Below are positions 11,001 through 12,350 of a stretch of DNA of 42,818 nt, piece by piece. Below the pieces are notes generated by a model, which searched no databases, was not told the origin of the DNA, and saw only the letters and a program-made list of their open reading frames with translations. Numbering within the stretch: position 1 is the first letter of the stretch; every line of letters starts with the position of its first letter. The position numbers and the translations under genes were made by a program. The stretch is from Candidatus Woesearchaeota archaeon (GTDB lineage Archaea > Nanobdellota > Nanobdellia > Woesearchaeales > SKGA01): assembly GCA_016926395.1 (NCBI GenBank), contig JAFGOT010000024.1, positions 1 to 42,818 of the forward strand, in the 5' to 3' direction.

Positions 11001-11405
11001 ATGAAAAAACTCGTTGTATTTGGATTAATATACAAAAATCAATTTCTTGTAATGAACCGTCCTTCTAATCATGTTAATAAACCGGGTTCGTTAACTTTGC
11101 CTGCAGGCCATGTTGAAGATGGTGAAACATCTAAAGACGCGACTTATCGAGAACTGAAGGAAGAATTTGATATGTCTGGTTTTGAAATTGAACTTTTAAA
11201 AGGTCCTTATCCACATTTGTCTGCAACAAATAAAGAATACGAAGTATATTTTTATTTAATTAAAGATTGGGATGGACAGTTTGTGAATGTTGAAAATCAA
11301 GATGTTTTTTTTATGGATTTGAATGAGGAGAATATTGGTTTGATTGAAATTGAATCAAGTCGAGATATTCTGCGAGAATATATTTCTAAGATAAATTGTA
11401 TTTAA
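11001..11405 (+). CDS. NUDIX hydrolase
   Basis: Nudix box GHVEDGETSKDATYRELKEE. Confidence 0.9.
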   Translation: MKKLVVFGLIYKNQFLVMNRPSNHVNKPGSLTLPAGHVEDGETSKDATYRELKEEFDMSGFEIELLKGPYPHLSATNKEYEVYFYLIKDWDGQFVNVENQDVFFMDLNEENIGLIEIESSRDILREYISKINCI

Positions 11406-11482
11406 CATGGCGGGTAGAAGAAGTTGCGAAGAAATTCCCCCGAAGGGCGTAACGAAGTGGAGTTCTAGTCGCTGTTATACGA
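11400..11482. repeat. attC-like fold-back element containing cGAAg mini-hairpins
   Basis: ATTTAAC (11400-11406, contains the NUDIX stop) ... GTTATAC (11474-11480); inner pairs TAGAA/TTCTA and GTTGCG/CGTAAC. Confidence 0.5.
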
Positions 11483-11536
11483 GTGCGAAGCACCTTTCGA
11501 AGAAAGCGTTAAGAAAACCTAATTTAAAAGCACAAA
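11473..11536 (+). repeat. Left arm of imperfect inverted repeat framing the 11537-12268 gene
   Basis: TGTTATACGA-[24 nt of two GAA hairpins]-CGTTAAGAAAACCTAA-tttaa-AAGCACAAA. Confidence 0.75.
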
Positions 11537-12268
11537 CTATCTTTCGAATGTACTTTCAAGTTGATCTAATATATTTTTTGCAATGTGAAGGGTTATGAAA
11601 TATGGTAGAGGTAATTTTGCACATTTATATTGCATCATTTTTTTAGTTGGACCTGAAAAAATATTTGCGACCTCAAAATCAGAATCACTATTAGAGGGAT
11701 GACTTGCATCATATTCATTTGCAATTCTTTTGATTAGTTCTTCATTTGAAATGTAAGCTGCATTGCAATTCTCTACATTGAATTTTATCGCAGGAGATTC
11801 GAGGTATTTAGCAAAATTCACTCTTTGTGTTTGCATTTTGTGACTTTCATCATTCATTATTTTTACCTCTTCAGGAGAAAGAACTCTGTGAATAACAAAA
11901 AATTGTGCACGTGTCATACTTGTATCATTGTCGAATTTAACAAATGTTCCAGTTGAAAATTTTTCAGCTGCGGGGCCACTTATTATTTCCTGTTGATTTA
12001 AAGTTGTTCTGTTGACTGAATTAGTAGTGACGCCTGATGGTAAATGACAAAATACATAAGTTCCACCTGTTAGCAATTTTTTGAATTTTTTTGTTAGAAT
12101 TGGGATTTTGAAAATGTTTTCATTTTTGATTTCAGTAACTTTGTTTTTAAGTTCAGTCCATACTCTTAGGGTGTGCGCTAAATCCAGAAATGAAATTATG
12201 TCGTAGTTTGTTATGGCACTATCGTAATGACGTTTAAGTCTTGCATATTGAACATTGTAACTTACCAT
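11537..12268 (-). CDS. Orphan protein, 243 aa, cargo of IR-framed cassette
   Basis: Long ORF with own TATA-like box about 21 nt upstream; no family recognised. Confidence 0.8.
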   Translation of the reverse strand: MVSYNVQYARLKRHYDSAITNYDIISFLDLAHTLRVWTELKNKVTEIKNENIFKIPILTKKFKKLLTGGTYVFCHLPSGVTTNSVNRTTLNQQEIISGPAAEKFSTGTFVKFDNDTSMTRAQFFVIHRVLSPEEVKIMNDESHKMQTQRVNFAKYLESPAIKFNVENCNAAYISNEELIKRIANEYDASHPSNSDSDFEVANIFSGPTKKMMQYKCAKLPLPYFITLHIAKNILDQLESTFER

Positions 12269-12300
12269 GATAATAAGTAGTGTTCTTGAATATATAATAT

Positions 12301-12350
12301 TTTGTGCTTTAGGTTTTTCTTAATGTCGTATAACATGTATTAGGTCGACT
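12301..12350 (-). repeat. Right arm of inverted repeat, ending in a dif-like 11-6-11 site
   Basis: Reverse complement of 12301-12335 is TGTTATACGACATTAAGAAAAACCTAAAGCACAAA; 12323-12350 is ATGTCGTATAA-CATGTA-TTAGGTCGACT. Confidence 0.7.

Follow-up and report, generated by a model that had tools for sequence, protein, structure and literature searches.

A probable stub of an integron-like gene-cassette array in a Woesearchaeota archaeon

Introduction

A stretch of 42,818 nucleotides from the genome of a Candidatus Woesearchaeota archaeon (GenBank assembly GCA_016926395.1, contig JAFGOT010000024.1), in the following called the window, carries a gene, P0001, which is enclosed by an inverted repeat. 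Which kind of element encloses this gene, and which enzyme could have moved it, is the question raised by the locus. A reading made from the letters of the window alone (the sequence-only reading) had interpreted P0001 as the cargo of a cassette-shuffling system. By comparison with related genomes and metagenomes we concluded that positions 10922-12425 of the window are probably the worn stub of an integron-like gene-cassette array.

That integrons have been reported from archaea, as the sequence-only reading stated, is confirmed by a survey which described 539 attC sites in 75 genomes and only six integron integrases (IntI), which carry the IntI-specific domain (Ghaly et al. 2022, PMC9668308). 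Most of these archaeal cases are attC clusters without integrase, among them metagenome-assembled genomes (MAGs) of Woesearchaeales (PMC9668308).

Results

A single gene enclosed by a three-block inverted repeat

P0001 is located on the minus strand between a NUDIX gene (11001-11405, plus strand) and uvrB (12550-14490, plus strand) in a genome of 1.02 Mb with 32% G+C and 82.5% completeness. Among the proteins of this genome is ribosomal protein S4e, which is restricted to archaea and eukaryotes. The inverted repeat around it consists of TGTTATACGA at 11473-11482 and TCGTATAACA at 12326-12335 (block 1), TTAAGAAAACCTA at 11509-11521 and TAGGTTTTTCTTAA at 12310-12323, which contains one additional A (block 2), and AAGCACAAA at 11528-11536 and TTTGTGCTT at 12301-12309 (block 3). 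The stop codon of P0001 (CTA, 11537-11539) directly borders block 3, and the heptamer TAACATG is present at 11403-11409 and 12331-12337 with a spacing of 928 bp. The three blocks, both heptamers and the abutment of the left arm on the stop codon had all been described in the sequence-only reading and were found exactly where it placed them. Blocks 1 and 2 of the left arm are separated by a 26-nt insert, most of which (11483-11506) is made up of two mini-hairpins, GTGC-GAA-GCAC and CTTTC-GAA-GAAAG.

The 13- and 14-mer words of the repeat are single-copy in the 1.02-Mb genome, with a chance expectation of 0.1-0.2, and the repeat is thus above chance. As the identical locus was found, assembled in the same manner, in two other public assemblies from further runs, it is not an assembly artefact; contigs with the identical cargo showed no variant of it. 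A search against Rfam returned no family, and a tRNA search returned no match.

Related folded sites form arrays in genomes of the same genus

When relatives were searched at the DNA level, G003, which belongs to the same genus, gave a match to the right end of the repeat and to the sequence that follows it. Pairs of the core GTTATACG / CGTATAAC flank a series of unrelated genes in G003 (a methyltransferase, a DUF6624 protein, a GNAT protein and small open reading frames, ORFs). These genes are separated by GC-rich units, 75-110 nt long, which read NNNTAACA-TC-stem ... stem-TGTTANNN. Positions 11400-11483 of the window are one member of this type. An alignment of eight copies yielded a consensus fold with 27 pairs, 14 of which show compensatory changes, comprising a 5-bp core stem (TAACA / TGTTA), a freely covarying inner stem of about 11 bp, a 2-nt bulge between the two stems, and two terminal mini-hairpins. 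When full-length G003 units were folded as DNA and compared with shuffled sequences, five of seven reached z values of -2.8 to -5.9 and the other two -1.8.

A covariance model, R1, built from the folded unit, matched 10 of the 14 genomes of the genus and none of four sister-genus genomes, and the matches were always clustered in one shared orientation. G003 contained 38 of them (about 20 consecutive on contig C12) and G013 nine; two to four were present in each of G001, G002, G004, G006, G007 and G011, and one each in G009 and the source genome. The sequence-only reading had looked to further sites of this kind as support; they exist in the relatives, as arrays of a single orientation, and do not exist elsewhere in the source genome. 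There, motif searches with TGTTATACGA, words of blocks 2 and 3, stem signatures and the insertion-site word (see below) revealed no further copies beyond chance, and a generic scan for AAC...GTT stems gave 52 matches versus about 33 in shuffled sequence, all of which were judged to be noise. At other Woesearchaeota loci with related recombinases R1 found no matches, and the contigs there end where an array would start. The module family appears to be genus-specific. Several G003 contigs (C4, C5 and C12) begin inside modules, and the arrays seem to break short-read assemblies.

A model-based alignment of 64 modules showed that AAC and GTT are retained in nearly all of them, with few exceptions such as TAC / GTA pairs. 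The site in the window reads ATTTAAC ... GTTATAC, and its GTTATAC deviates from GTTRRRY at one position. The two TAACATG copies are the conserved core of two successive recombination sites and not target-site duplications. The pattern CTAR-N6-TTATACGA, proposed for both ends in the sequence-only reading, fits the two sites of the window and fails in the family, where most aligned members have CTAA seven bases before TTA.

The modules and the inserts in the arms are rich in triloop mini-hairpins (144 observed, 27 expected). Altogether 105 of the 144 have GNA loops (GCA 67, GAA 31, GTA 7), all on the strand hit by the model, where 8% would be expected. Triloops of the GNA type closed by a C-G pair reportedly form exceptionally stable DNA mini-hairpins, as described by Hirao, Yoshizawa and colleagues. 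On the same strand, G.T pairs outnumber A.C pairs by 128 to 32, a count that is biased since the alignment was fitted to the model. The GNA-rich strand is opposite to most cassette genes. This asymmetry points to folding of a single strand, which would match the recombining bottom strand of attC. A duplex dif or pdif site, as considered in the sequence-only reading, is not compatible with covarying hairpins and this strand preference; a 28-bp palindrome of the dif type, with two 11-bp arms around a spacer of 6-8 bp, was not found at the junctions, where the conserved parts pair only through a loop of 40-80 nt.

The segments between sites have the signature of integron cassettes

In the 52 array segments delimited by these modules, the four variable bases of each GTT box were compared with AAC boxes. 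Across the segment, all four bases were complementary in 30 of 52 cases (on average 3.33 bases), versus 3 of 64 for the AAC box of the same module (mean 2.08) and 8.7% for random box pairs (mean 1.98). In the window, TTATAC pairs exactly with GTATAA. As the boxes match across the segment and not within the module, the variable half-boxes apparently travel with the segment and the exchange point would lie inside the invariant core. Complementarity of this kind is a classical property of integron cassettes, and together with the arrays in relatives it bears out the proposal of a cassette-shuffling system.

Complementarity of the segment ends extends beyond the boxes, with a mean local score of 38 compared to 20.6 for controls; 31 of 52 segments exceeded the 99th percentile of mismatched ends. 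The outer arms in the window scored 41, where the 99th percentile for mismatched cassette ends is 34.5. Since the sequences flanking a module on its two sides reach only the control level of complementarity (mean score 21), insertion of a hairpin module into a pre-existing palindrome was ruled out. The only conserved property of the outer arms is their complementarity; their sequences vary between cassettes, and blocks 2 and 3 are the private arms of the P0001 cassette. A related word was observed outside this cassette: GGAGAGTCCAGATTTTTTTTT, at 12421-12442 upstream of uvrB, matches 19 of 21 positions of a word in the outer arm of a G003 cassette on contig C12, where the word belongs to a 12-nt inverted repeat, GGGGAGTCCAG / CTGGACTCCCC.

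Segments have a median length of 696 bp and mostly contain one ORF, the longest ORF spanning about 74% of the segment; 32 of the 43 ORFs of at least 60 amino acids (aa) are located opposite to the strand hit by the model. Segments without an ORF, about 180-200 bp long and rich in GC mini-hairpins, were also observed (G013:C4, G003:C12, G003:C5 and G001:C7), with 73-89% identity within and between the arrays of three genomes.

It might be argued that the modules are structured elements without any mobility, such as 3'-end hairpins, terminators or gene-end inserts, and that the genes between them are ordinary residents, because modules follow the 3' ends of most ORFs. Such elements would hardly account for box complementarity that spans the segment and is seen neither within nor across the module, for segment content that differs among relatives, for dominant GNA triloops, stable in DNA and located on the strand opposite to most genes, or for the linkage of the modules to a recombinase and an insertion site. 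We regard this explanation as very unlikely.

Two observations define the cassette. In the clearest pair of duplicates (G013, segments 89% identical), identity is 96% for the module 3' of the gene and only 56% for the other module. In G003, one segment end occurs on two contigs, next to a normal module on the first and next to an insertion-site hairpin on the second. A cassette therefore appears to consist of a gene followed by the module at its 3' end, which would place the crossover at G/TT on the gene strand, equivalent to AA/C on the plus strand of the window (the slash marks the exchange). The cassette in the window would accordingly extend from 11406 to 12333, and its 928 bp equal the distance between the direct repeats, in agreement with the bounds proposed earlier. 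Joining 12333 to 11406 in silico gave a 173-nt hairpin of -35.2 kcal/mol (z -8.2) with a perfectly paired core, also as predicted by the sequence-only reading, and with the crossover in the middle of the stem.

A Xer-like recombinase with its own insertion site accompanies the arrays

The array of G003 ends at a hairpin, CGTATAAC-ATCTATTAGGTCGAC...TGTTA, followed by a divergent tyrosine recombinase gene, which is frameshifted in that assembly. Intact homologues of 261-284 aa are similarly placed beside arrays in G001, G009 and G006, and further homologues of the array type, one of them broken by a stop, are located at contig starts in G005, G007, G011 and G012. In these four the gene lies within 150-450 bases of the start of the contig (G005:C9, G007:C26, G011:C33, G012:C31). 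A related hairpin, AACA(C/T)NTATTAG...TGTTA, is found upstream of the array recombinase, complete in G001, G003, G005, G009, G011 and G012; in G006 only its leading part, AACACCTATTA, is present. Three further Woesearchaeota MAGs have a related hairpin or its leading motif upstream of a homologue, L090 with the leading part only. The recombinase is thus conserved with its own insertion-site hairpin in at least ten genomes, other genera included. In the relatives the conserved hairpin ends in the core directly upstream of the recombinase gene, i.e. in the position of attI, and the nearest named relatives of the recombinases of the genus belong to Candidatus Woesearchaeota MAGs.

The best family for the array recombinase is archaeal XerA with 206-222 bits (cut-off 220). 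Its match to the integron-integrase model TIGR02249 amounts to 187-201 bits (cut-off 265), in two pieces which skip about profile positions 180-237. The enzyme is collinear with Pyrococcus XerA (4A8E) and has 29 residues where the integron integrase VchIntIA (2A3V) has 71; the IntI-specific domain is therefore absent. Most genomes of the genus carry a second Xer besides the array type. In an unrooted maximum-likelihood tree the second Xer forms a clade of its own (100/99) among archaeal and bacterial Xer proteins, and the array-linked enzymes form a separate group (92/84) on the IntI-containing side of the main split, which has only 88/88 support. The array enzyme thus represents neither the housekeeping Xer nor a canonical IntI. 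The suggestion that a Xer-like enzyme other than IntI drives the system agrees with these data, as the enzyme linked to the arrays of the relatives is a Xer-like tyrosine recombinase lacking the IntI-specific domain.

The place of the array enzymes in the tree also bears on the possibility that the window holds a remnant of an archaeal integron of the IntI type, namely an attC cluster without integrase, with a classical integrase encoded elsewhere and the neighbouring Xer-like gene being incidental. Grouping on the IntI side is in line with this possibility, as are AAC/GTT cores and a cassette logic that match attC and the published archaeal clusters, mostly without IntI, which include Woesearchaeales MAGs with three to four attCs (PMC9668308). 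In the 14 genomes of the genus, however, no integron-integrase match reached the cut-off, and both the conserved pairing of the array enzyme with its own insertion site across genera and the missing domain argue for a dedicated enzyme. An integron of the IntI type is therefore unlikely here. In a limited literature search we came across no report that links a Xer-like enzyme to arrays of this kind in DPANN archaea.

The locus as a probable array stub without its recombinase

Positions 12327-12422 are 76% identical to the insertion site and leader of G003. The similarity to the leader stops where the recombinase gene would begin; uvrB starts 125 nt further on, and no remnant of a recombinase was found in 12426-12549. 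At the other end of the locus, the half module at 10922-10950 does not fold and is not reported by R1. Among 13 relatives of the genus, a single one contains a match to the adjacent NUDIX gene, which is remote (25% identity) and has an in-frame stop, whereas relatives carry 70% homologues of the GNAT gene on the far side of the half module. Taken together, the half module, the cassette-like NUDIX gene and the conserved GNAT gene suggest that the array probably ends at the half module, which would be its worn far end. Within 1.5 kb there are one full module, one half module and one insertion-site hairpin, one of which reaches the threshold of the model. The features are compiled in Table 1.

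Table 1. Coordinates of the cassette locus and of its predicted parts in the window.
Feature	Position	Strand	Basis
Insertion-site (attI-like) hairpin	12327-12375	+	76% identity over 96 nt to the recombinase-adjacent site of G003
Parts of insertion-site hairpin	AAC box GTATAAC 12328-12334; stem TTAGGTCGAC / GTTGATTCTAA; GTT box GTTAGAT 12369-12375	+	Sequence
Leader of missing recombinase gene: worn hairpin and TTTTGGAGAGG	12376-12425	+	Aligns with stretch from insertion site to start codon in G003 and G001
Cassette, 928 bp	11406-12333	-	Bounds from AA/C cores; homology to distant genome stops at core
Cassette order on minus strand: outer arm, own promoter, gene, outer arm, folded site	11406-12333	-	Sequence
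attC-like folded site, 81 nt, GC-rich	11400-11483	+	Model R1, 62.8 bits, E 2e-13; family alignment and covariation
Parts of folded site	AAC box ATTTAAC 11400-11406; 10-bp covarying stem; two mini-hairpins; GTT box GTTATAC 11474-11480	+	Sequence
Two GAA-triloop mini-hairpins within one outer-stem arm	11483-11506	+	Like inserts in G003 cassettes, judged by eye
Outer inverted-repeat arm, gene-distal, blocks 2 and 3	11509-11536	+	Repeat analysis
Outer inverted-repeat arm, promoter side, blocks 3 and 2	12301-12323	+	Block 3 and TATA region kept in 81% homologue
TATA-like box, block 3 directly upstream	about 12288-12297	-	Sequence
Cargo gene P0001, 243 aa	11537-12268	-	No Pfam or PADLOC family
NUDIX gene, probably second, antisense cassette; stop codon inside AAC box	11001-11405	+	Pfam NUDIX
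Half folded site ATTGAAC ATC AGGATTTAGAG AAGTTG, partner arm missing	10922-10950	+	24/25 identical to G003 modules

The sequence-only reading had named the recombinase ORFs starting at 522 and 1664 as possible drivers. This assignment was not supported: neither has the N-terminal domain or an insertion-site hairpin, identity to the array type is only 36% over 66 aa, and the distance to the cassette is about 9 kb. They belong to a region (2-2861) in which an HTH_40-like ORF (2-496) and unannotated ORFs stand beside tyrosine recombinases reduced to the catalytic domain (522-1031, 169 aa; 1664-2410, 248 aa), and they look like parts of a separate mobile element rather than the array enzyme. A recombinase on contig C18 of the source genome, the best match to the array type there, was likewise rejected as array enzyme: its identity is 33%, its branch in the tree is long, and the sequence upstream of it contains no insertion-site hairpin. 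On this 2.6-kb contig (G000:C18) the divergent 290-aa tyrosine recombinase is directly followed by a 358-aa ORF, and the pair looks like another small mobile element.

An empty site was not found by synteny, as the relatives are too rearranged and the genes upstream of uvrB differ; neither NUDIX-uvrB nor GNAT-uvrB adjacency was found in relatives. Two metagenome scans with the insertion-site word for other first cassettes or an empty site gave no matches. The empty site and the excised circle anticipated in the sequence-only reading thus appeared neither in the synteny of relatives nor in these scans, nor on contigs with identical cargo.

Elsewhere in the window, a 351-aa ORF (5372-6427) has a Pfam match (E 1e-13) to the catalytic core of topoisomerase IB of the eukaryotic type, here in a DPANN-sized archaeon, and no NCBIfam model match. 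A 488-aa ORF (20535-22001) shows a weak partial match (E 7e-8, far below the cut-off) to the MAD6 kinase of methylation-associated defence systems.

Transfer of the cargo gene between distant lineages

For P0001, 36 homologues were found in metagenomes and none in 60 related genomes; a scan of a genome collection for relatives of the cargo found nothing. One homologue, 81% identical in both protein and DNA, is carried by a DPANN genome whose seryl-tRNA synthetase (SerRS) is only 48% identical. The nucleotide homology spans 11473-12310 of the window. At its 3' limit with respect to the gene, TCGTATAACA and CCATATAACAA correspond to the core (TATAAC(A)), and 5' of the gene the limit is block 3 beside the promoter. 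This comparison shows that the cargo was transferred horizontally between lineages that are only distantly related, the break being located at the core. The 81% copy (ENA ERZ27251468 contig, L168 4956-5797) lies between a PC4-like gene and DUF5320/DUF134 genes and may represent a cassette that became fixed away from any array or that entered a secondary site. The contexts of homologues with 47-53% identity are unrelated single genes.

Passage between distant lineages, together with inverted repeats of about 35-64 nt around the cargo, would also be expected of a small transposon or a miniature inverted-repeat transposable element (MITE) with terminal inverted repeats and a passenger gene, moved by a transposase. 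Variation of the outer repeats from cassette to cassette leaves no common end for a transposase to bind, a transposase was not found in the neighbourhood, and the elements are arranged head-to-tail in arrays with one common core. Of the explanations weighed, a transposon is the one to which we give the least credence.

Members of the cargo family have about 241 aa and share invariant R10, H14, R181, N184 and H190. An AlphaFold2 model of P0001 (predicted local distance difference test, pLDDT, 86; predicted template modelling score, pTM, 0.87) has no clear match in the PDB. Foldseek gave no match at E <= 0.001, and VIA-align gave Z values of at most 6.9, within the noise stated for helical models. 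Among the weak top structure matches (Z 6-7), helical domains of the HEPN type predominate; the Vibrio integron cassette protein 3JRT is also one of these matches.

Discussion

The following mechanism is proposed. Read along the minus strand, the locus would consist of an insertion-site hairpin with the leader of a lost recombinase (12425-12327), a cassette (12333-11406), an antisense NUDIX gene and a half site (10950-10922). Relatives have the same sites in arrays with up to about 20 cassettes, next to a dedicated Xer-like tyrosine recombinase of 260-285 aa. The plus strand of each site, opposite to most cassette genes, would fold into a hairpin, in which the recombinase would exchange strands inside the invariant core, at AA/C on the plus strand and G/TT on the minus strand. 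A cassette would leave as a circle, the two ends of which would complete a long hairpin with the crossover in mid-stem, and this circle would re-enter at the insertion site. With the enzyme gene gone, the cassette in the window is probably frozen unless the enzyme acts in trans.

Several points weigh against this interpretation. All support for it is computational and none experimental. The source genome, 82.5% complete, contains a single complete module, and no array-type recombinase was found in it. The module of the window by itself folds weakly (-8.6 kcal/mol, z -0.43), no better than shuffled sequences. A single pair of duplicates clearly fixes which module accompanies the segment. The 81% homologue has no module and only worn boxes, so that this copy is not in an array. 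Finally, searches for a circle, an empty site or a different first cassette found none, and the two other assemblies have the identical locus. Having weighed these points, we still favour the worn stub of a cassette array.

The arrays resemble integrons, both sedentary chromosomal ones and the archaeal ones of PMC9668308, in most aspects of their organisation. Mostly single-gene cassettes, with occasional cassettes lacking an ORF, are lined up in one orientation; each ends in an imperfect palindrome bounded by invariant AAC...GTT cores; the first bases of a cassette are complementary to its own inverse core; within a lineage, the sites belong to one homogeneous family; the insertion site is placed like attI between the array and a divergent tyrosine recombinase; and the strand asymmetry points to folding of the strand opposite to the genes. 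They differ from integrons in their recombinase, which is XerA-collinear and without the IntI-specific insertion; the window itself has no adjacent integrase. In the sites, a 2-nt bulge between core stem and inner stem may stand in for the attC spacer or for extrahelical bases, the latter not having been identified. Unlike in attC, the terminal structure consists of two GNA-triloop mini-hairpins, and cassette-specific outer arms lengthen the stem by 20-40 nt past the core boxes, which places the crossover in mid-stem. The P0001 cassette, in addition, has its own TATA-type promoter.

Other systems share single aspects. XerCD acts on the folded single-stranded attP of the phage CTXphi; this and other Xer-exploiting elements use the housekeeping Xer of the host and integrate at dif. 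A Xer-family enzyme would here, too, act on a hairpin of one strand and not on a duplex site. The array enzyme is, however, a second, dedicated paralogue with its own insertion site outside the housekeeping Xer clade, and its product would be an array of many cassettes. The pdif modules of Acinetobacter plasmids are single genes between inverted recombinase sites, which are 28-bp duplex sites (11-6-11). They have in common with the arrays single genes bracketed by recombinase sites and an implied Xer-type enzyme, whereas the sites described here are covarying hairpins of 75-110 nt in direct orientation along the array. The inverted repeats of a transposon or MITE differ by being the same from copy to copy and by their transposase; here the outer repeats are specific to the cassette.

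In the window the system is represented only by a stub without its enzyme. The earlier interpretation was right in kind and wrong on the enzymes it named, on the dif-type duplex site and on further sites in the genome. Beyond the window, we consider it rather likely that Woesearchaeota carry a separate integron-like branch, in which a Xer-like recombinase without the IntI domain acts on folded single-strand hairpins, the stems of which extend well past the core boxes into cassette-specific arms, and cassettes cross between distant DPANN lineages.

If such a branch exists, the IntI-specific domain would not be needed for cassette capture, and the system may be a living relative of the transition from Xer to IntI. 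How integrons originated from recombinases of the Xer type, and how cassettes and sites are formed, are open questions. In the present case the cassette logic of integrons is combined with an enzyme without the domain regarded as the hallmark of integron integrases. The site design differs from that of attC in the mid-stem crossover, the split outer arms and the GNA mini-hairpins, and the enzyme of G001, the 81-nt site and the insertion-site hairpin are testable reagents. For annotation, orphan genes of DPANN archaea with private inverted repeats and a common AAC/GTT core become readable as captured cassettes, and arrays of these sites would explain frequent contig breaks. The window adds a case in which the enzyme gene was apparently lost and the insertion site retained, and it provides direct evidence, from the comparison of homologues, of cargo crossing between distant lineages with the break at the core.

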